Below, one piece after another: positions 1-6,462 of a stretch of DNA of 6,462 bases (within the stretch, counting starts at the first letter, position 1; every line of letters begins with the position of its first letter). The notes under the pieces were generated by a model. The model was not told where the DNA came from and searched no databases. It saw only the letters and a program-made list of their open reading frames with translations. The position numbers were made by a program, and so were the translations under genes. This DNA comes from a virus. Location: the IMG/VR virus record IMGVR_UViG_3300000359_000035, positions 1 to 6,462 of that record. One strand, written 5' to 3'.

Positions 1-54
1 TCTATCCATGTATCCTGCTCCGATACCCGAACTCGCTAATACAATTTGTTTGAA
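1..54. repeat. Terminal direct repeat, exact copy of 6409-6462 (assembly circularisation overlap); circular genome unit = 6408 nt
   Basis: Read directly: bases 1-54 (tctatccatgtatcctgctccgatacccgaactcgctaatacaatttgtttgaa) are identical to 6409-6462. Joining the ends restores a single intact Rep ORF. Confidence 0.95.
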
Positions 55-597
55 TGTAGGGTGTTTGATATCTACTTTGAGCATATATTTTGTTATGTAA
101 TTTACGCTTTTTGAGCTGCAATATCCCCCTATAAATACAAATCCATATTTCCAGTGTTTTTTTATTAGGGCCGCTGATTTTTGTCCGAAAAATATACCAT
201 GTAAATGAATTCTGTCGTTTTGCTCTCCCAGCTCTGTAACGCACCAGTGTCTTATACTTTTCCCTGTATCTTTCCTTGCCCGTTCTAAAAACAATCTTAA
301 CGCTTTTGAGGCTATTTCGTTTGGGTTCTCTTTCCATTTTAAGCCTGTGTCTTCTTCGAGTTTCTTTATGTGATTTTCGTCTATTGTCAATGTAGTAAAG
401 TATCCGAAACTCGAGCGTAACTCCTCTTCTAATCTTACTCTCCATTCTCTTTGTTTCTCTTTTCGACATTCAATACAGCACCCGCACTTTACAGGAATGT
501 AAAGGAGCCTCCTATCTTTACAAACAGGAGGTTTTCCTTTGTTCTTTTTGTTGGGTTTATATTTTGGATTTTTGACAAAAGTAGGATATAAACACAT
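1..597 (-). CDS. Replication initiator (rolling-circle HUH endonuclease, microvirus VP4 / gene A-like), N-terminal 196 aa; the gene continues across the circular junction into 6417..5875
   Basis: Manual translation of the minus strand in the frame with codons at 597-595 ... 12-10. It reads MCLYPTFVKNPKYKPNKKNKGKPPVCKDRRLLYIPVKCGCCIECRKEKQREW...FGYFTTLTIDE...NDRIHLHGIFFGQ...VNYITKYMLKVD...ASSGIGAGY, followed by MDRLDY of the 5875..6417 ORF. It contains a Cys cluster (C-x12-C-G-C-C-x2-C) and HUH motifs I (FTTLT), II (HLHGIFF) and III (YxxKYxxK). The frame differs from the track ORF 2..469. ATG at 597 lies 1 nt after the VP2 stop (601-599). Confidence 0.88.
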   Translation of the reverse strand, partial: MCLYPTFVKNPKYKPNKKNKGKPPVCKDRRLLYIPVKCGCCIECRKEKQREWRVRLEEELRSSFGYFTTLTIDENHIKKLEEDTGLKWKENPNEIASKALRLFLERARKDTGKSIRHWCVTELGEQNDRIHLHGIFFGQKSAALIKKHWKYGFVFIGGYCSSKSVNYITKYMLKVDIKHPTFKQIVLASSGIGAGYMDR

Positions 598-598
598 G

Positions 599-1732
599 CT
601 AATATGATTCTGTGTACGTTTCAGTTGTCGCGGTTTTGCCTCTTCTCTCAGATACAGTTCTTGTTCTAGATTTTTTCCTGCGGGCCTTGAGTAACATATT
701 TACGATATTTTCTCCGAATTCTAAGCCTAAACCAAGTCTTTCATTAAAGGTTTGTTCTTCCCATCTATCGAGCATACCTTCTACTTGCTTGCGATAGGTT
801 TCTTTATCCCAATCATGTTTATCGGCAAGGGCTTCTAATTCTTCGATAGACGCTTGAAGATGTTTTATTTGCTTCTCATTCACTTCTTTATCGCTCATAT
901 ATTTTGCTGCTAGCGCAATAGCTACTGCGTTATTATAGTTTGCGGAGTCAACTCTATCTTGATAAGTGTCTTTTAAGTATTGGTTCTGGATTCTTTCATT
1001 CTCTTTTCGCCAATATTCTGTATGAGCTTCTTCACTATATTTTGTAGCTGCGGCGAATGCTTCGCTTATTTGGGCCTTTGTTAGCCCTTCTTGCATTTCT
1101 CTGAGCGATTTTAGGGCCTCAGTAGCTTCTTTTTCTGCTTTCGATAATTGAGTCAAGGCCTCTTTATAATTACCTTCCTTCAAATTAAGTTCTATTTGAG
1201 AGGCTAGCCCTTCAATTCGTTTTAAAGTTTCTTGTGTATCTACACCTCCAATTTTCTTGGCTTCTTCATTTGCCTTACTTGCTTGTGCTTCCGCCAGCGC
1301 TATTTGGGCGTCGTTCATTCTCCTTTGCTGTTCAATTTGTTGTACTTGTAATGCCATACCTACTGGATTCCCTTGCGGTTGTTCTGGAGCTGATTGATGA
1401 GCTCCACCACTTGCACCCATACCTCCTGCTCCGCTTTGTCCATACATTAATCCGACATTTAGTCCGGCGTTTTTTAGATGTCTAACTTGATTTTCCGCAT
1501 TGGTATAATCCCAGAAGTCTTTTGCATATTGTTGAGATTGAGAGGCTGCTTCTTTTTGATATTTGTTTTGTAGTGCCATGATGTTTTTGTTATATTTCCA
1601 TTGTTCATTCATAGCTCTTTGTGGGGACCAGCTTAGTCCGAATGCTTGACTTAATGCATTTCCAGCGAATCCTATTCCTTGACTTGCTGCCGCGGATCCC
1701 AATCCACTTATAAATGATGTTCCAAATCCCAT
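599..1732 (-). CDS. Minor capsid / DNA pilot protein (microvirus VP2, phiX174 H-like)
   Basis: 377-aa ORF immediately upstream of Rep. N-terminal Gly/Ala/Ser-rich segment (GLNVGLMYGQSGAGGMGASGG) followed by a long heptad-like K/E/A/L/Q-rich helical region, as in coiled-coil DNA-translocating pilot proteins. Position between MCP and Rep is typical. No SD. Confidence 0.65.
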   Translation of the reverse strand: MGFGTSFISGLGSAAASQGIGFAGNALSQAFGLSWSPQRAMNEQWKYNKNIMALQNKYQKEAASQSQQYAKDFWDYTNAENQVRHLKNAGLNVGLMYGQSGAGGMGASGGAHQSAPEQPQGNPVGMALQVQQIEQQRRMNDAQIALAEAQASKANEEAKKIGGVDTQETLKRIEGLASQIELNLKEGNYKEALTQLSKAEKEATEALKSLREMQEGLTKAQISEAFAAATKYSEEAHTEYWRKENERIQNQYLKDTYQDRVDSANYNNAVAIALAAKYMSDKEVNEKQIKHLQASIEELEALADKHDWDKETYRKQVEGMLDRWEEQTFNERLGLGLEFGENIVNMLLKARRKKSRTRTVSERRGKTATTETYTESY

Positions 1733-1756
1733 GTTGTTCTATTTGTTTGATTTTTC

Positions 1757-1778
1757 GCCCTTGTAATCTTACAAGGGC
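1757..1778. promoter_or_regulatory. Perfect 22-nt palindrome (10-bp arms GCCCTTGTAA / TTACAAGGGC, 2-nt spacer) 24 nt upstream of the VP2 start codon
   Basis: Read directly from sequence; every arm position pairs. No U-tract follows on either strand. Possible operator-like dimer-binding site or mRNA 5' stem-loop. Confidence 0.4.
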
Positions 1779-1824
1779 TATACATATTACTAGATAATAT
1801 ATGCTACATGCGTACCATTTTGTG

Positions 1825-1861
1825 AAAAATGGAGGGAGTAGAGACTAAGTCTCTATCTCCC
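1825..1861 (-). terminator. Intrinsic terminator/attenuator-like hairpin + U-tract between ORF111 and VP2
   Basis: Minus-strand RNA reads GGGAGAUAGAGAC-UUA-GUCUCUACUCCC (12-bp stem, one bulge) followed by UCCAUUUUUCACA. It lies 19 nt after the ORF111 stop. The plus strand also shows a hairpin followed by TTTTA. Confidence 0.45.
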
Positions 1862-1880
1862 AGCCTTTTAGATGTGCGGT

Positions 1881-2216
1881 TTATCCCGCCGATTCCTGTT
1901 GCGAAGAATTATCTCCTATTTCTTTCGAATCGAGGGCATTTTGTTCTTGTTGTTCGATTTTCCCGTAGTTTTTCGATTTTGCGAGATTTGCCTGGTTGAC
2001 CGCGTCCATTGCTTGTTGTGCAATATCCCATCTGTCAGTTCTGATGTTATAAGCCGGTAATACTCCGTCATCTCTATTTGTGTAAATGATTGGTGCTCCA
2101 TCTGTAATTGGTTCATTGTTCTCGGTAACTCGTTTGACTTTTGTTTCAATGCTTTCTCCATCTTGAAATTCATAGTTTGTTTTTGGAGGTCTTGAATATA
2201 ATTTTGGTTTAATCAT
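1881..2216 (-). CDS. Hypothetical protein (111 aa) between major capsid and pilot genes
   Basis: ATG at 2216 lies 11 nt after the VP1 stop (2230-2228) and is followed 19 nt downstream by a terminator-like hairpin. No recognisable motif. A nested 85-aa alternative frame exists. Confidence 0.45.
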   Translation of the reverse strand: MIKPKLYSRPPKTNYEFQDGESIETKVKRVTENNEPITDGAPIIYTNRDDGVLPAYNIRTDRWDIAQQAMDAVNQANLAKSKNYGKIEQQEQNALDSKEIGDNSSQQESAG

Positions 2217-2227
2217 AATTGTAAGTT

Positions 2228-4306
2228 TTAAATGTTAGGAATTACTTTTGCTGACATTACTCGTCTTGGATTGACATTAAATGCTATTTGTATCCAAAAA
2301 TTTTGCGCGGTTATGTCTGTATCGGCGAAGATATTGTTGTAGAGGTGTGGAAATATGTAAGTAGTGTAGGTTTTTATATCTCCAAATATCCTATTTAAAC
2401 ACATCCAGCCCTCATTTTCGACAAGCGCAAAGTTCCCATATGTTTTATTAACATTTGTCATGTATTCAATCCATGCAGGTTGTTTACCGATTGATTTACC
2501 CGACATTGCGTAAGGTGTATTTGCGTTTACGCTTCGGTATAATCTGTCTTGAAAGCCTATACCATCAAGTTGTGGTTTATGCAGATCGTCTAGTGTCAAT
2601 AAATAATTATCCCACTCGTTGCCTTGGAAATAATCAACTCTTGGAGTGAGAGATGTGATACAAAATATGTATCCGGGTTCGTCTGCCTTGAACACAATAT
2701 TCCCTCCCTTGTGATTGGTTGCTATGCCTCTACCGGCTAATGTTCCTAATGGTTGTTCTTCGGTTCCGCTGTTGTTTACAACTTCTTGGAATTCAACTTC
2801 AAGTGAGCTACCACCGAGATATAGAGGTGTTTCGATATGATTTAATCCTCCACTTGTGTAAACGGTCTGAATCCATGCATTATACGATCCGTCGGATACG
2901 GCAATTCTGTTGAGCATAGTGTACACTTTTTTTGCGAGGTTAAGAGTGTCCAGAGTGAAACTACCTCCGCTCGTATCGATTGCTGTAATAGCGTTGATTC
3001 CTGAATCTCCGTCTATCCATTCGGTATTTACCCAGTTTGTATTGATATCGCTTTGATATGTTTTAAGTGCTAAACCAACCATTGGTTGCGAACAGCTTGG
3101 CGCTACACCATTTTTTGTCTGTACAGGTTTAAAAATATCGACTATGAACGGATCTTGTGATATATATTGGGTTCTTCCTGCTGCGAGTATATTTTCTCGC
3201 ATATCGTCGATCGTACTTAAATCATAGCTATTATATCTCGCTTCTACACTTGTAGCGAGAGAAGGTTTGTCTACATAATAATATGTTCTAAAAGTTGCTT
3301 CGGTTGGATAGAATTCAGCTTCAAGCCTATAATACTCTACTCCGGTTACGGCGTTGCTTACAGATTTTGTAATGTCTGTTAAAACGCCTGTTTCTAAGAG
3401 ATTGTTTATAGTTCCATATATTTTAATTGCTTGTTTACCCCCTACATTTCCGCCACTTCCAAGTAACCAACCTGTTTGCATGTTAATGCTTACTTCTATT
3501 TGTCCTGAATTCTGATCTTGGGTGAATGGTTTTATAGCCAATACCCAAGTTTGATAGTCTGTGTTTTTTTTAGGGTATTCACCTGTAGAATTTGCGAAAT
3601 TTTGTACACCCGTAGCGACAACAGTCCATGACTTTTTATTATCGCTGCTATTTGCAACAGTTAAGCTCATTTGTCCCTCTCCGAGGGTGCTTGCCACTTG
3701 TTTATATAAATAGTAGGTATTTCCAGATATTACGTAAAATTTAGATTCTTGTTTGTTTGCATAATAATTTTTAAAGATGTCGTAATACATCATTATTTTA
3801 ATGCAGTTGAAAGTCTTCATCTTTGAACCGTAACCTTCTAAGGTCGAGAGAGCCCTTACCCCTGTATATGCAACTAGTGAACTGGGATTGACTTCATTGA
3901 GTAGAGAGTCATTACTTCCGTCCATTTTGCTCTTATCGGTATATAGATTGTAAGGTATTGGGTACATAGGGAATTTTACTTGTTTCATATTTAGTCCTAT
4001 ATTTAATGCATTATTATGCAGCATAGCATTGTACAGTCTAATAGGACAAAAGAAGAAGTCGTTTTGTTGCTTAAAACTTCCAAACAGAGGCCCAATTGTT
4101 GGGTGTGTTAGTGTGTGACACCTAGTTTGGATAGGAAAGGTATCTCCTGGTAATATTAAATGATATAATGTAGGAATTAGAGATCCTACGGCCGCTGATG
4201 TTCGACAAACACTACTAAGGTCGTGCGTACTACGGTTATAATTATTTAACCGCGTCATCATTTTTTTGCCACCTCCAAGGGTGTTCTTTCCAATACTGAC
4301 TTTCAT
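2228..4306 (-). CDS. Major capsid protein (microvirus VP1 / F-protein family), 692 aa
   Basis: Longest ORF in the window. N-terminal segment ...STHDLSSV...SLIPTLYHLILPGDTF resembles the conserved HDLS...EVLPGDTF start of Microviridae VP1. Size fits gokushovirus/Alpavirinae-type MCP with large insertion loops. ATG (4306-4304) overlaps the stop of the upstream ORF as ATGA. An alternative start is at MMTRL (aa 16/17). Confidence 0.88.
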   Translation of the reverse strand: MKVSIGKNTLGGGKKMMTRLNNYNRSTHDLSSVCRTSAAVGSLIPTLYHLILPGDTFPIQTRCHTLTHPTIGPLFGSFKQQNDFFFCPIRLYNAMLHNNALNIGLNMKQVKFPMYPIPYNLYTDKSKMDGSNDSLLNEVNPSSLVAYTGVRALSTLEGYGSKMKTFNCIKIMMYYDIFKNYYANKQESKFYVISGNTYYLYKQVASTLGEGQMSLTVANSSDNKKSWTVVATGVQNFANSTGEYPKKNTDYQTWVLAIKPFTQDQNSGQIEVSINMQTGWLLGSGGNVGGKQAIKIYGTINNLLETGVLTDITKSVSNAVTGVEYYRLEAEFYPTEATFRTYYYVDKPSLATSVEARYNSYDLSTIDDMRENILAAGRTQYISQDPFIVDIFKPVQTKNGVAPSCSQPMVGLALKTYQSDINTNWVNTEWIDGDSGINAITAIDTSGGSFTLDTLNLAKKVYTMLNRIAVSDGSYNAWIQTVYTSGGLNHIETPLYLGGSSLEVEFQEVVNNSGTEEQPLGTLAGRGIATNHKGGNIVFKADEPGYIFCITSLTPRVDYFQGNEWDNYLLTLDDLHKPQLDGIGFQDRLYRSVNANTPYAMSGKSIGKQPAWIEYMTNVNKTYGNFALVENEGWMCLNRIFGDIKTYTTYIFPHLYNNIFADTDITAQNFWIQIAFNVNPRRVMSAKVIPNI

Positions 4307-4566
4307 TTTGTTTCGTTTTTAAGTTGTTGTTTATTGAGTTCATTAAGTCTTTGACACATAGCTCCAATTATTGCTAAATCCATGTTTGTCAATTTGAAGT
4401 GTTCATCCAGATATTTCATTGCTTCTTCTTGTGTGTCGAACACGTGTGGAGTTGCTACGTATTCTCCTACTGCAAAGACAAATTTATCTTCTTCACCTCT
4501 GCGAATTGCGCGTACTTGTACTACGTCTTGGCCTTCCGCCCATTGTACTGCTTCTTGTTGGTCCAT
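4303..4566 (-). CDS. Small acidic hypothetical protein (87 aa), translationally coupled to VP1
   Basis: ORF rich in D/E (MDQQEAVQWAEGQDVV...EEDKF...DTQEEAMKYLDEHF). Its TGA (4305-4303) overlaps the VP1 ATG (4306-4304). Start lies 2 nt after the stop of the upstream ORF. Confidence 0.55.
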   Translation of the reverse strand: MDQQEAVQWAEGQDVVQVRAIRRGEEDKFVFAVGEYVATPHVFDTQEEAMKYLDEHFKLTNMDLAIIGAMCQRLNELNKQQLKNETK

Positions 4567-4568
4567 AA

Positions 4569-4847
4569 TTAAATGTTTTTAGTTGCTTCAATTTTTGTTA
4601 GTATAATTCTACTTTTACGTAATTCGTTTTCCAGTCGTTCTGCTTCTTTAAATAAGCAGCAATTCATGACAATTCTAAATCCTTTTACGCAACACCCTGT
4701 ATCCCATTCGAAGCCCTCCCACATGAGAGCATAACTTCCTTCGCTGAATGATTCAAAAGGTATTTTAGCTGATTTGAGCCACTCCTTTTTACGGAATTTG
4801 CCGTATTTCGTGATGGATGGTATCATTGTGATGTGAATTTGAATCAT
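4569..4847 (-). CDS. Hypothetical protein with CC-x12-CC motif (92 aa; start may be the internal Met at 4826)
   Basis: ORF contains DTGCCVKGFRIVMNCC. Its 5' 38-59 nt overlap the upstream ORF 4789..5007 in another frame. Ends 2 nt before the ORF87 start. Confidence 0.4.
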   Translation of the reverse strand: MIQIHITMIPSITKYGKFRKKEWLKSAKIPFESFSEGSYALMWEGFEWDTGCCVKGFRIVMNCCLFKEAERLENELRKSRIILTKIEATKNI

Positions 4848-5007
4848 TTTGACCTTTGTTATTTACATTTACAGTATTCCCTGATACTTTCCAAGTGCTT
4901 CCGCAACCCTCGAATATATAGGATATTGCTAATAATATAGCTGCACCTATAACACCTGCTACTGTCTTCCAGTTCTCTTTCAAAAATTGTTTGATTTCTT
5001 CTTTCAT
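4789..5007 (-). CDS. Small single-pass membrane protein (72 aa); candidate lysis / membrane-targeting protein
   Basis: One 18-20 aa hydrophobic helix (WKTVAGVIGAAILLAISYIF) after an amphipathic K/E N-terminus, then a polar N/S/H-rich tail. ATG at 5007 is 1 nt after the stop of the upstream paralog ORF (5011-5009). Confidence 0.5.
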   Translation of the reverse strand: MKEEIKQFLKENWKTVAGVIGAAILLAISYIFEGCGSTWKVSGNTVNVNNKGQNDSNSHHNDTIHHEIRQIP

Positions 5008-5008
5008 A

Positions 5009-5320
5009 CTAATAAAGTTTGATTATGTCTATTTTTAATGTGTTGTCGTATTCTTCTAGTTTTCTCTTCACAAATATAGCGACTCTTTTGCAACATAGCT
5101 TAATATTTGCCTCTAATTTTGAATTATTATCGGTATCTTTAACGTCCAGGAGATATCGGTGTCCAGAGTCTTTCTCAATAACACTAGTTATGATATCTGC
5201 AAAACTTCGGTAAAAAAGCATGTCTGTACGACTTATTTCATCTTCGTTTTTACCAGGTCCTCTCACGATAAATTTGTTGTCAAAATGGCGTTTTGCTATT
5301 ATTACGTGTCTTCTTTTCAT
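5009..5320 (-). CDS. Hypothetical small protein, paralog B of a tandem pair (104 aa from ATG 5320; the track's 119-aa version starts at 5368)
   Basis: Shares ordered motifs with ORF 5322..5630: KNEDE, SGHRY, a conserved Cys, and KRK...I.KLY at the C-terminus, with similar spacing. ATG at 5320-5318 sits 1 nt after the stop of paralog A (5324-5322), so the shorter start is favoured. Confidence 0.5.
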   Translation of the reverse strand: MKRRHVIIAKRHFDNKFIVRGPGKNEDEISRTDMLFYRSFADIITSVIEKDSGHRYLLDVKDTDNNSKLEANIKLCCKRVAIFVKRKLEEYDNTLKIDIIKLY

Positions 5321-5321
5321 T

Positions 5322-5630
5322 TTAGTAAAGTTTTTTAATAGTGAGTATATAATTAGAATTTGCCGCATTGATTTTTCGCTTTAAAAGCAATGATTCTTTT
5401 TTTGAATGACAAATAATATATTTTGAATATAATTTTCCTTGTTCGTCGAATTTGCTGTATTTTAATTCATACCTATGTCCGCTTCTTTTTCTTTCTCCTT
5501 CATAAATGATTTCCCATTCTTCCGAGCATGGAAAGTTACTCCACCAGTTAATGGATTCATCTTCGTTTTTGAAATTCATTGTTAAGATGGTTTTTTTCTC
5601 AATGTGTTTTAGTAGCATAATTGTTCTCAT
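5322..5630 (-). CDS. Hypothetical small protein, paralog A of a tandem pair (102 aa); first gene after the intergenic promoter
   Basis: MRTIMLLKHIEKK...FKNEDESINWW...KRSGHRYELKY...CHSKK...KRKINAANSNYILTIKKLY. Homologous over its length to ORF 5009..5320. Preceded by a TTTG / TAnnTTTG Bacteroidetes-like promoter. Confidence 0.5.
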   Translation of the reverse strand: MRTIMLLKHIEKKTILTMNFKNEDESINWWSNFPCSEEWEIIYEGERKRSGHRYELKYSKFDEQGKLYSKYIICHSKKESLLLKRKINAANSNYILTIKKLY

Positions 5631-5657
5631 GACTTTGCTTGTTTTATTGTTACACTA

Positions 5658-5689
5658 CAAAGATACCACAGAAATCCCCTTTTTCCAAA
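5658..5689 (-). promoter_or_regulatory. Candidate Bacteroidetes sigma-A-type promoter (-33 TTTG, -7 TATCTTTG) driving the ORF102-to-VP1 operon
   Basis: Minus strand: TTTG at 5689-5686 and TATCTTTG at 5665-5658 (a TAnnTTTG match), separated by 20 nt, about 28 nt upstream of the ORF102 ATG (5630). Sits in the only sizeable intergenic region with upstream A/T-rich TTAAC repeats. No SD sequences precede any gene, consistent with Bacteroidetes. Confidence 0.4.
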
Positions 5690-5755
5690 AAAATATCCCA
5701 TTTTAACTTATGTTATTAACATATTTAACTATTGCCCGATTCCCGCAGGGAATAC

Positions 5756-5768
5756 AGCGAAACGAGCT
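5756..5768. repeat. Direct repeat copy 1: AGCGAAACGAGCT (iteron-like)
   Basis: 12/13 identical to AGCGAAGCGAGCT at 5819-5831. The CGAGC pentamer recurs at 5763, 5817 and 5826. Confidence 0.45.
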
Positions 5769-5818
5769 CCGCCGTTGAGCGTACAGAAAGCATGTAATGC
5801 TTTCCCTTATACACCCCG

Positions 5819-5831
5819 AGCGAAGCGAGCT
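5819..5831. repeat. Direct repeat copy 2: AGCGAAGCGAGCT (iteron-like; overlaps the GCGAAGC mini-hairpin)
   Basis: See copy 1. Spacing is 63 bp. Confidence 0.45.
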
Positions 5832-5874
5832 TCTGTTCTCGGCCGAAGGCCGCCAATTACTGTCTGGTATTATT

Positions 5875-6417
5875 TTAAATTTTTACAGTCCCACCCAAAG
5901 ATTCGTAATGCTCTACCGTCGCGCGCCTCCTTACCCTTTCAAATATCCACATGTTGAATTTGATGTATTCTTCTATGGCACTGTCCCATTTTTGCTTTTT
6001 CTCTTGCATAGGAAAATCGGCCTGTGACGGCAACTCTGTTAGATTTTCCGTGCTGAATTTTTCAGCTAATTTTTTAGCTTCTGCAATAGCTCGTCGTTGT
6101 TTTTCCTCTTTCCTTCTAGTTTTCATAGCATTCCACGCAATAGGATTATCTCCCATTACCTCACGTCCGTATTTTTGCCAATATTCTCTAAGGTTGTCTA
6201 TTGTTTTCCAATCGTCTGCTTTCACTTTTTCTCCATATATCCATAGTATTCCTCTATTAAGGTTATTAATCCACATTTTCTCACGCTCTTTCTCGGTGAA
6301 TATTTTGTTTTTGTAGTATTTCGGCATAGCCATTTTTGTACCGTTTCGGAACGTATAGGTAGCTACGTTGATATTCTTATAATTCTGTTTTTGCCATAAA
6401 TAATCTAATCTATCCAT
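5875..6417 (-). CDS. Replication initiator VP4, C-terminal 180 aa of the same gene (Met at 6417 is internal; 6409-6417 duplicates 1-9)
   Basis: The open frame is continuous with 10..597 when the window is circularised. It contains MPKYYKNKIF and a basic/helical tail as in microvirus Rep C-termini. Stop TAA at 5877-5875. Total Rep = 376 aa. Confidence 0.88.
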   Translation of the reverse strand: MDRLDYLWQKQNYKNINVATYTFRNGTKMAMPKYYKNKIFTEKEREKMWINNLNRGILWIYGEKVKADDWKTIDNLREYWQKYGREVMGDNPIAWNAMKTRRKEEKQRRAIAEAKKLAEKFSTENLTELPSQADFPMQEKKQKWDSAIEEYIKFNMWIFERVRRRATVEHYESLGGTVKI

Positions 6418-6462
6418 GTATCCTGCTCCGATACCCGAACTCGCTAATACAATTTGTTTGAA
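6409..6462. repeat. Second copy of the 54-bp terminal direct repeat
   Basis: Identical to 1-54. Confidence 0.95.

Follow-up and report, generated by a model that had tools for sequence, protein, structure and literature searches.

Gene content of the window

The DNA analysed here, positions 1 to 6,462 of the IMG/VR virus record IMGVR_UViG_3300000359_000035 (hereafter the window, 6,462 nt in all), carries the genome of a small bacteriophage of the Microviridae type, with genes for a capsid protein (VP1), a DNA pilot protein and a replication protein (Rep), and with a conserved structured non-coding element, E1. Every long, real gene lies on the minus strand, packed in a single direction, and about 94% of the unit is coding. 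Read along that strand, the order is o102, o119, o72, o92, o87, VP1, o111, E1, pilot, Rep, which spans the join between the two ends of the window, and E2, the main intergenic region. The features on which the reading of the window as a genome depends are the following.

1..54: left copy of the 54-nt terminal redundancy, located inside the Rep open reading frame (ORF) and encoding Rep residues 182-199 on the minus strand
6409..6462: right copy of the 54-nt redundancy, identical to 1..54
4306..2228, minus strand: VP1, major capsid protein, 692 amino acids (aa); PF02305 at 2.6e-13 (cut-off passed) and phrog_514 at 1.2e-46
1732..599, minus strand: DNA pilot protein (VP2/H-like), 377 aa; weak match to phrog_8689 at 3.9e-5; position downstream of the capsid gene conserved
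597..1, minus strand: Rep/VP4, N-terminal part, aa 1-199; ATG at 597
6462..5875, minus strand: Rep/VP4, C-terminal part, aa 182-376; stop at 5875; joins the N-terminal part via the circle, for a total of 376 aa

VP1 has the size given for it in a preliminary description of the sequence, its N-terminus is conserved from residue 5, and it matches a solved capsid protein (PDB 8des_A, E 4e-13). Rep matches PF23343 (1.2e-13) and phrog_942 (3.8e-36), and is 61% identical at the aa level to the Rep of Dulem virus 224, an annotated relative, and to that of a Phocaeicola provirus (about 61-62%). It carries a CGCCIEC cysteine cluster (aa 38-44), motif I as FTTLT (67-71), the HUH motif as HLH (131-133) and a motif III, YITKY (167-171), with two tyrosines; by these motifs, it is predicted to be a superfamily-I rolling-circle replication initiator. 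The pilot protein is built from a Gly/Ala-rich hydrophobic N-terminus, a long helical middle rich in Glu, Lys and Gln, and a basic C-terminus. Its identity to annotated pilot proteins is 35-44%, a range that covers Dulem virus 224, at 35%, and the Phocaeicola provirus. The core set VP1, VP2 and VP4 recognized earlier is thus confirmed, by Pfam and PHROG matches for VP1 and Rep, and by phrog_8689 together with the identity to annotated pilot proteins for the third.

A complete circular genome

Positions 1-54 are exactly repeated at 6409-6462, a 54-nt match between the two ends that is beyond chance; the spacing of 6408 defines a unit of 6,408 nt, which fits the size of a small circular microvirus genome (about 4-7 kb). 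The preliminary description had proposed a complete circular Microviridae genome with a 54-bp terminal redundancy, and had suggested removing one copy of the repeat. When this is done, an ORF search on the circle yields an intact Rep ORF of 376 aa, starting at 597, passing through 1/6408 and stopping at 5875. This ORF appears only after closure of the circle; on the linear window, a 180-aa ORF (5875-6417) is found in its place, which corresponds to the C-terminal part of Rep and is an artefact of the cut. That Rep becomes whole only once the ends are joined is, among the evidence internal to the window, the strongest argument for a circle with overlapping ends over a pair of attachment sites.

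External evidence comes from an exact-sequence look-up of VP1, which found an ENA contig (L003; ERZ28578039 scaffold_3641; 6,463 nt, with a 55-nt terminal repeat). This contig is the reverse complement of the 6,408-nt unit in circularly permuted form, with 0 mismatches over 6,463 nt. Its breakpoint falls in the pilot gene, and the 376-aa Rep gene is called on it without interruption. More generally, terminal repeats are present in 33 of 51 related contigs of 5.9-6.9 kb, and their lengths (30, 55, 77, 105 or 127 nt) are typical of assembler k-mers. Relatives from other samples are opened at still other places of the genome, and eight aligned relatives from other contigs are collinear and gap-free across the join of the window.

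An alternative reading of these repeats would be that they are attL and attR, the window then being an integrated prophage or an excised fragment. Integrated relatives of the phage (L012, L016 and L017, see below) do have flanking direct repeats, of 19, 23 and 31 nt, respectively. However, the 54-nt repeat of the window lies inside the Rep coding sequence, and joining the ends restores full-length Rep, while the proviruses of relatives are opened in the intergenic region between Rep and the small ORFs, not within Rep. The length of the repeat is consistent with an assembler k-mer overlap, the window is devoid of any host gene, L003 is continuous across the join, and the relatives are collinear through it. 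The chance that the window is a prophage or an excised fragment is therefore vanishingly small, and the earlier rejection of a chromosomal fragment or an att-flanked prophage is borne out. Three longer contigs with near-identical VP1 (L004-L006) were also suspected to be prophages, and this was rejected since they are wrap-around chimeras of strains: at 8.3-9 kb, such contigs run around the circle 1.4 times, pass two VP1 alleles on the way and are free of host DNA.

Such chimeras also bear on a second alternative, namely that the circle is an assembly artefact, either because two co-occurring strains were falsely joined or because the genome is incomplete or over-collapsed. Strain chimeras are known in the group, as the 1.4-unit contigs L004-L006 with their two different VP1 alleles illustrate, and another contig (L173, see below) has a mid-gene junction with bacterial DNA. 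In addition, the 6,408-nt unit exceeds the 5,965-6,331 range of 33 tallied circular relatives. Nevertheless, this extra length is due to one extra intact gene, o119, whose orthologues occupy the same place in L025-29, with circular units of 6,428-6,430 nt; all genes are intact and ordered as in the relatives, and an identical sequence exists on a second contig, L003. An artefactual circle is thus very unlikely.

Taken together, these data indicate, with a probability of roughly 0.92, that the entire 6,408-nt circle of an uncultivated Microviridae phage is represented in the window, as its reverse complement and with a 54-nt assembly overlap added. Two points weigh on the other side: L003 and the window may have been assembled from one set of reads, which would make the former supporting evidence and not a fully independent replicate, and both the circularity and the single-strandedness would follow from assembly logic and family membership instead of from reads.

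Relatives and capsid types

At the nucleotide level, none of 50,697 phage records was matched by the genome in a megablast search. VP1, for its part, matches 611 phage records, all of them microviruses among the matches listed, with Dulem virus 224 (57.7%) and then Microvirus mar60 (47.5%) as best annotated matches. In a large protein collection, 6,963 VP1 matches were found at E<=1e-20, the best 120 of which are 85-95% identical and lie on contigs of at most 9 kb; public metagenomes hold more than 100 unannotated VP1 clusters at 85-95%. The genome is that of an ordinary microvirus of an already sampled group, and its exact sequence was already present, unannotated, in an ENA assembly.

Dulem virus 224 (PP511397, from lemur faeces) and Microvirus mar60 (MZ089806, from marmot faeces) are, like the phage of the window, circular and 6.0-6.5 kb in size, and share its order: VP1, a small ORF, a gap, pilot, Rep, a gap and small ORFs. 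Their aa identities to the window are 58% and 47% for VP1, 61% and 51% for Rep, and 72% and 57% for o111, respectively, and Dulem virus 224 has an E1-like element as well. In contrast, both lack counterparts of o72, o92, o102 and o119, and the divergence from these two viruses is at least at the genus level. Contigs from human-gut metagenomes and IMG/VR (e.g., L025-L031 and L042) are much closer and share a genus-level backbone, with 83-95% identity for VP1, 80-88% for Rep and 84-98% for o92; these unannotated gut contigs differ from the window in having mostly one type of the o102/o119 paralogues, and in their size of 6.0-6.3 kb.

In a second group of gut contigs, VP1 is only 58-63% identical while Rep (80-88%), o111 and o92 are close. 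Two divergent VP1 types (about 60% aa identity) are thus found on an otherwise 80-90% identical backbone (L043-L053, L004-L006), and both types co-occur in single samples, which gives rise to the 1.4-unit chimeric contigs. The existence of two VP1 types suggests either capsid-gene exchange or strong diversifying selection.

Classification

Membership in the Microviridae (Petitvirales) is well indicated by the predicted proteins; placement below this level depends on what is meant by Alpavirinae. As proposed by Krupovic and Forterre, this subfamily comprised seven proviruses (the BMVs), in all of which Rep abuts VP1, with an ORF of about 150 codons after VP1 (PMC3091885). It was then widened to three subgroups (Roux et al. 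2012; PMC3394797), and later restricted by Kirchberger et al. to Family 5, the family of the provirus BMV1, alongside six further Bacteroidetes-associated families, i.e., seven of 19. The old subfamily has been called polyphyletic (Zucker et al.; PMC9753089). Table S3 of Kirchberger et al. lists MG945397 as Family5 alongside BMV1, and the comparison with Family 5 made here rests on this one genome.

In that comparison, VP1 aligns with its MG945397 counterpart at 24% over 251 aa (E 1e-7), plus 30% over 71 aa, short of the at least 30% aa identity over at least 80% coverage used for family clustering (PMC9239249). The E-value is equal to that obtained over short segments with the gokushovirus Chlamydia phage Chp2 (E 1.5e-7). 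Rep, pilot and o111 gave no match to MG945397 at E<=0.01, and Family 12 (MG945894) is more distant than MG945397. The layout also differs: the window has a 244-nt intergenic region and five ORFs between Rep and VP1, while VP4 abuts VP1 in MG945397. Between VP1 and VP2, the window has the conserved o111, of 111 codons; the BMVs have an ORF of about 150 codons there, for a putative VP3 scaffold.

Should the phage nonetheless be placed in the strict Alpavirinae, that is, in the BMV provirus clade or Family 5 "Alpaviridae" of Kirchberger et al.? Its size, gut origin and inferred Bacteroidales host, with VP1, VP2 and VP4 as the only recognisable proteins, are the traits given by Roux et al. (2012; PMC3394797), and its Dysgonomonas relatives have dif-like flanking repeats, as do the BMVs (PMC3091885). 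BMV1-7 and Family 5 likewise combine gut and Bacteroidales with a size of about 6 kb, the same three recognisable proteins and the circular order VP4-VP1-VP2. Yet protein similarity to them is no higher than to gokushoviruses, VP1 being no closer to MG945397 than to Chp2 and the other proteins compared giving no match. Rep does not lie directly upstream of VP1, unlike in all BMVs, and the accessory genes and large intergenic region of the window are found between VP4 and VP1, in contrast to the Alpavirinae sensu stricto, where they follow VP2. Furthermore, the traits of Roux et al. discriminate poorly, given seven Bacteroidetes-associated families and a polyphyletic "Alpavirinae" (PMC9753089). 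With a single Family-5 sequence and no BMV sequence in the comparison, we consider a place in the strict Alpavirinae unlikely. The phage was instead concluded to represent a separate family-level lineage of Bacteroidales microviruses, possibly Family 4 or 6 of Kirchberger et al. The former label "Alpavirinae/gokushovirus-like" consequently stands in the loose 2012 sense of Alpavirinae, but none of the conserved proteins is closer to the Family-5 representative than to a gokushovirus.

With the Gokushovirinae (Chp2, phiMH2K; structure 8DES) and phiX174, the phage shares the F/VP1 capsid fold family, a superfamily-I HUH Rep with two tyrosines and a structured intergenic region downstream of the capsid gene; by contrast, its VP1 is 130-260 aa longer and sequence similarity is only remote. 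No homologues of gokushovirus VP3, VP5 and VP8 were found in the window by Pfam and PHROG searches (and by hhalign for VP3), nor of phiX174 G, D, J and E by Pfam and PHROG. Rep gave no match either, and the phage does not qualify as a member of the Gokushovirinae, which are marked by VP3 scaffold and VP5 homologues and by a VP1 that clusters with those of Chlamydia, Bdellovibrio or Spiroplasma phages. An assignment to the Bullavirinae (phiX174-like) was considered as well and rejected, as the spike G and external scaffold D families are absent and VP1 aligns with phiX F at E 0.64.

A conserved structured element downstream of the capsid gene

The shorter of the two intergenic regions holds E1.

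1880..1733, minus strand: E1, structured non-coding element of 148 nt, between o111 and pilot
1861..1834, minus strand: hairpin 1 of E1
about 1824..1782, minus strand: invariant core of E1, CACAAAATGGTACGCATGTAGCATATATTATCTAGTAATATG
1777..1758, minus strand: hairpin 2 of E1

E1 is the most conserved stretch of the genome, with an identity of 0.96 versus about 0.85 in genes, and a mean column identity of 92% in a separate E1 alignment (A2). A set of 29 distinct E1 sequences shows compensatory pairs in the inner stem of hairpin 1, no variation over a core of about 50 nt, and a variable loop on a preserved stem in hairpin 2; the core between the two covarying hairpins reads GGTACGCATGTA...TATTATCWAGTAATA. 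A covariance model always locates E1 between an o111-like gene and the pilot gene, on the coding strand, even in genomes and proviruses with a Rep identity of only about 40%; L012, L016 and Dulem virus 224 are among the carriers. In the combined alignment, 94.8% of cells are paired, versus 44-59% in controls with slid partners, double changes are seen at 31 of 40 pairs, and none of 500 shuffles reaches the pairing and double-change values, although this alignment was fitted to the covariance model, which favours structure. Folded as single-stranded DNA (ssDNA), E1 has a z-score of -5.8. No Rfam match was found for E1. Its G-T wobble pairs, one of them invariant, would be C-A mismatches on the complementary strand, which indicates that the coding-sense strand is the one meant to fold, as packaged ssDNA or as mRNA.

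A scan with 33 invariant bases of E1 retrieved 70 metagenome contigs, 69 of which are at most 8.8 kb long. The idea that E1 is far better conserved than everything else in the genomes with about 60% VP1 identity was dropped, since they share the backbone (Rep 80-88%) and differ mainly in VP1.

In phiX174, a primosome hairpin is found downstream of the capsid gene, ahead of gene G, and the primosome is loaded in this structured region; conserved, covarying hairpins have also been reported in other microvirus clades (PMC9865509). An element of the E1 type therefore has precedent, while E1 itself appears to be undescribed. Comparison with phiX174, which has hairpins downstream of its capsid gene F, makes E1 the best candidate for a replication origin in this genome; it could be a priming site used by host enzymes for the complementary strand, or the site nicked by Rep. 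The broader proposal that E1 is an undescribed, family-wide cis-acting replication element of Bacteroidales microviruses is put forward tentatively. Hairpin 1, with TCCATTTTTC right after it, could also act as a transcription terminator, either in addition to an origin in E1 or as a simpler explanation in its place.

The main intergenic region and expression signals

The second intergenic region, E2, lies between Rep and the small ORFs.

5874..5631, minus strand: E2, main intergenic region, 244 nt; 5' half indel-rich, with GC-rich hairpins
5753..5739, minus strand: E2 hairpin ATTCCC-TGC-GGGAAT; covaries, with variants ATTCCT/AGGAAT and CAGCCT/AGGCTG
5729..5700, minus strand: E2 GTTAA-repeat box, GTTAAAtatGTTAAtaacataaGTTAAAAT; three GTTAA repeats around a small palindrome, conserved in relatives
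5689..5658, minus strand: promoter-like TTTG-N20-TATCTTTG, 28 nt ahead of the first gene after E2

The GTTAA box contains the 9-mer TTAATAACA, which also occurs in the phiX174 origin sequence ATATTAATAACAC; a chance match is plausible. Proviruses L012, L016 and L017 are all opened in the region equivalent to E2. In the Phocaeicola provirus (L012), a 19-nt palindromic direct repeat, GTATTCGCGCCGAATACAG (3041-3059 and 9113-9131), flanks the 6.07-kb element at the E2-equivalent position, and the covarying hairpin at 5739-5753 is a possible attachment or recombination site.

Bacteroidetes initiate translation without Shine-Dalgarno (SD) pairing and use promoters with a -33 TTTG and a -7 TAnnTTTG. 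Both features had been pointed out for this sequence at the outset, and both are found again here. An SD-like 4-mer is present upstream of none of the nine genes, versus a 12% background, and upstream regions are 53% A. As to the promoter, TTTG-N17-23-TAnnTTTG has a single coding-strand match in the genome, with N20 spacing, and its TAnnTTT(G/A) box is conserved in 27 relatives. Telling against this promoter assignment are the single occurrence itself and the lack of enrichment of TAnnTTTG taken alone (9 found versus 8.4 expected). Scans for sigma-70 promoter and terminator consensus sequences gave numbers at or below the shuffle expectation.

Gene packing, small proteins and accessory genes

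The remaining genes are small.

2216..1881, minus strand: o111, 111 aa; tblastn matches in 104 loci; 76% of changed codons synonymous
4566..4303, minus strand: o87, small protein of 87 aa; ATGA overlap with VP1; coding constraint
4847..4569, minus strand: o92, Cys-rich protein of 92 aa; 84-98% aa identity in 35 loci; 87% of changed codons synonymous
5007..4789, minus strand: o72, 72 aa, with one transmembrane segment (aa 16-34); conserved in 36 loci; coding constraint
5320..5009, minus strand: o119, accessory gene, paralogue type B; longest ORF starts at 5368
5630..5322, minus strand: o102, 102 aa, accessory gene, paralogue type A; first gene past the main intergenic region

Measured gaps between genes are of 11, 1, 1, 1 and 2 nt, and overlaps are found at o87/VP1 (ATGA) and at o72/o92 (59 nt). 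The tight unidirectional packing previously reported, with 1-11 nt gaps or ATGA overlaps, accordingly describes most junctions; the 59-nt overlap and the two true intergenic regions, of 148 nt (1733-1880) and 244 nt (5631-5874), had been missed. When aligned with their counterparts in eight relatives, seven genes (VP1, o111, pilot, Rep, o72, o92 and o87) show a strong excess of third-position and synonymous change, in the annotated frame only, and are thus real genes. A 155-aa ORF at 2-469 on the minus strand was rejected as a gene: its frame, an alternative one inside Rep, is interrupted by 2-5 stops in five of the eight relatives aligned and lacks a coding signal. Scans of the window for tRNAs and Rfam families gave no match, no Pfam, PHROG or NCBIfam family was found for the small proteins, and none of the nine proteins scored above the cut-off in the NCBIfam scan.

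The o111 gene, located between VP1 and pilot, is the fourth gene conserved throughout the clade, and by its position its product is a candidate internal scaffolding protein; Pfam, PHROG and NCBIfam searches with it gave no match. Homology of o111 to VP3 was not supported by hhalign against gokushovirus VP3, which gave a non-significant probability of 0.6% and a short AMDxV match only. The most conserved protein within the genus-level group, above Rep and VP1, is o92, and it has no family match. An o87 homologue is found in 40 loci; those of the Phocaeicola provirus and of mar60 are weak. The transmembrane segment of o72 (Kyte-Doolittle 19-residue maximum of 1.96) is followed by Cys-Gly-Ser, and this protein could be a lysis or membrane protein, by comparison with the single-gene lysis proteins of small phages.

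The o102 and o119 genes are tandem paralogues (30% identity, E 3e-9), and o119 probably starts at Met17 (5320), giving a protein of 103 aa. Orthologues of o119 are found at 65-72% identity in L025-29, L034 and L042, and those of o102 at 52-68% in L048, L049, L031, L006-9 and others. In most relatives, this slot holds only one type, or a truncated remnant of the other, or unrelated ORFs of 50-126 aa. The presence of both types in the window, at 5009-5630, makes its genome about 300 nt longer than that of most relatives, and the slot between Rep and o72 may behave as an exchangeable accessory-gene cassette, although this is a weaker reading.

Host, integrated relatives and lifestyle

Integrated copies were looked for by a pattern scan of one genome per bacterial species, which found eight related loci; chromosomal context was examined for two of them. 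The first (L012) is on a 44-kb contig of a Phocaeicola metagenome-assembled genome (MAG; CAZAUU010000012), beside upp and PEPCK as identified by Pfam, with VP1 at 55% and Rep at 62%. The second (L017) is on a 265-kb contig of Dysgonomonas macrotermitis DSM 27370 (NZ_FQUC01000005), beside genes for SOD, a TonB receptor, gyrA and secA (Pfam). Contigs of Dysgonomonas sp. 521 and of two MAGs, one from Paludibacteraceae and one from Aphodosoma, hold further related loci. In the three others, filed under Acinetobacter, Faecalimonas and Clostridium, the locus takes up an entire short contig; these were taken as free phage in the assembly or binning errors. One of them (L013; NZ_JACWEU010000076, 5,673 nt), from an Acinetobacter lwoffii isolate assembly, is a whole-contig microvirus of the same clade with VP1 at 38%; it is likely to be assembly contamination and not evidence for an Acinetobacter host.

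The proviruses measure about 6.0-6.07 kb between their flanking direct repeats, which are located at 2665-2687 and 8667-8689 in L016, and at 8667-8697 and 14724-14754 in L017. They have the same four conserved genes as the window, in identical order, and L012 and L016 also carry an E1-like element; they differ in being integrated. The Dysgonomonas proviruses lie between dif-like repeats, AACATAA-TAGTAA-TTATGTAACA and ...CATAA-TGGTAA-TTATATAACAAA, whose right arm and spacer are common and whose left arms differ. This is the pattern expected of XerC/D-mediated integration, here in isolates outside Bacteroides and Prevotella, and dif-like repeats flanking proviruses have been described before (Krupovic and Forterre; PMC3091885). 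A search of the window for a dif-like site gave a chance-level match only. The search for integrated copies thus succeeded for distant relatives, in Phocaeicola and Dysgonomonas, but not for close ones, since the best 120 VP1 clusters are all on contigs of at most 9 kb.

The only long contig among the 70 with the E1 core is an 18.8-kb human-gut contig (L173; ENA UEPJ01002486). At 8100-8420, bacterial DNA runs into a VP1 devoid of about its first 160 residues, followed by o111, E1, pilot and Rep. Bacterial genes on this contig encode ZnuA, an ABC transporter and a TMEM260-like transferase, and the junction is also mid-gene on the bacterial side, in a gene with a TFDDGP motif, presumably a polysaccharide deacetylase. 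L173 looks like an assembly chimera or a dead, defective remnant and not like a clean provirus.

Several lines of evidence point to a gut Bacteroidales species as the most likely host: the integrated relatives, the absence of SD motifs, the conserved Bacteroides-type promoter, and the iPHoP prediction of Barnesiella as the host of Dulem virus 224 (PMC11281440 supplement). The Bacteroidetes host advanced earlier is in this way upheld by inference, through integrated relatives and a published prediction for a related virus. The lineage is probably lytic, a view held with low confidence and based on the chance-level dif-like match, on the lack of close relatives on long contigs and on the 69 of 70 E1-core contigs that do not exceed 8.8 kb. 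Two observations count against these assignments, one being that the host is deduced from relatives with 33-55% VP1 identity and not from the genome itself, the other that L173 may be a real, defective integration.

A proposed life cycle and its significance

Apart from the features reported above as observed, the steps that follow are drawn from established microvirus biology. The packaged strand would be of mRNA sense and would correspond to the minus strand of the window. Upon entry, guided by the pilot protein, host enzymes would synthesize the complementary strand. Transcription from the Bacteroides-type promoter in the 244-nt E2 would then proceed through the small accessory genes, VP1, o111, pilot and Rep, and the messages, in which SD motifs are indeed absent, would be translated without Shine-Dalgarno pairing. 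Rolling-circle replication would start from a nick made at the plus-strand origin by Rep, in which an HUH motif and two tyrosines were observed; E1, between o111 and the pilot gene, is the putative origin. Finally, VP1 would form a T=1 capsid, possibly with o111 as internal scaffold.

As thousands of gut microvirus genomes exist, this genome is in itself of little weight. It nevertheless provides a clean, complete reference for an abundant human-gut lineage, whose annotated GenBank relatives do not exceed 58% in the capsid protein. It also calls for caution with labels: size, gut origin and a Bacteroidales host are common to seven of the 19 families of Kirchberger et al. and are insufficient to call a phage "Alpavirinae".

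To our knowledge, no origin has been mapped in the Bacteroidales microvirus group. E1 offers a concrete candidate for such an origin, and can also be used as a nucleotide marker for the group, as illustrated by the metagenome contigs retrieved with its invariant bases.

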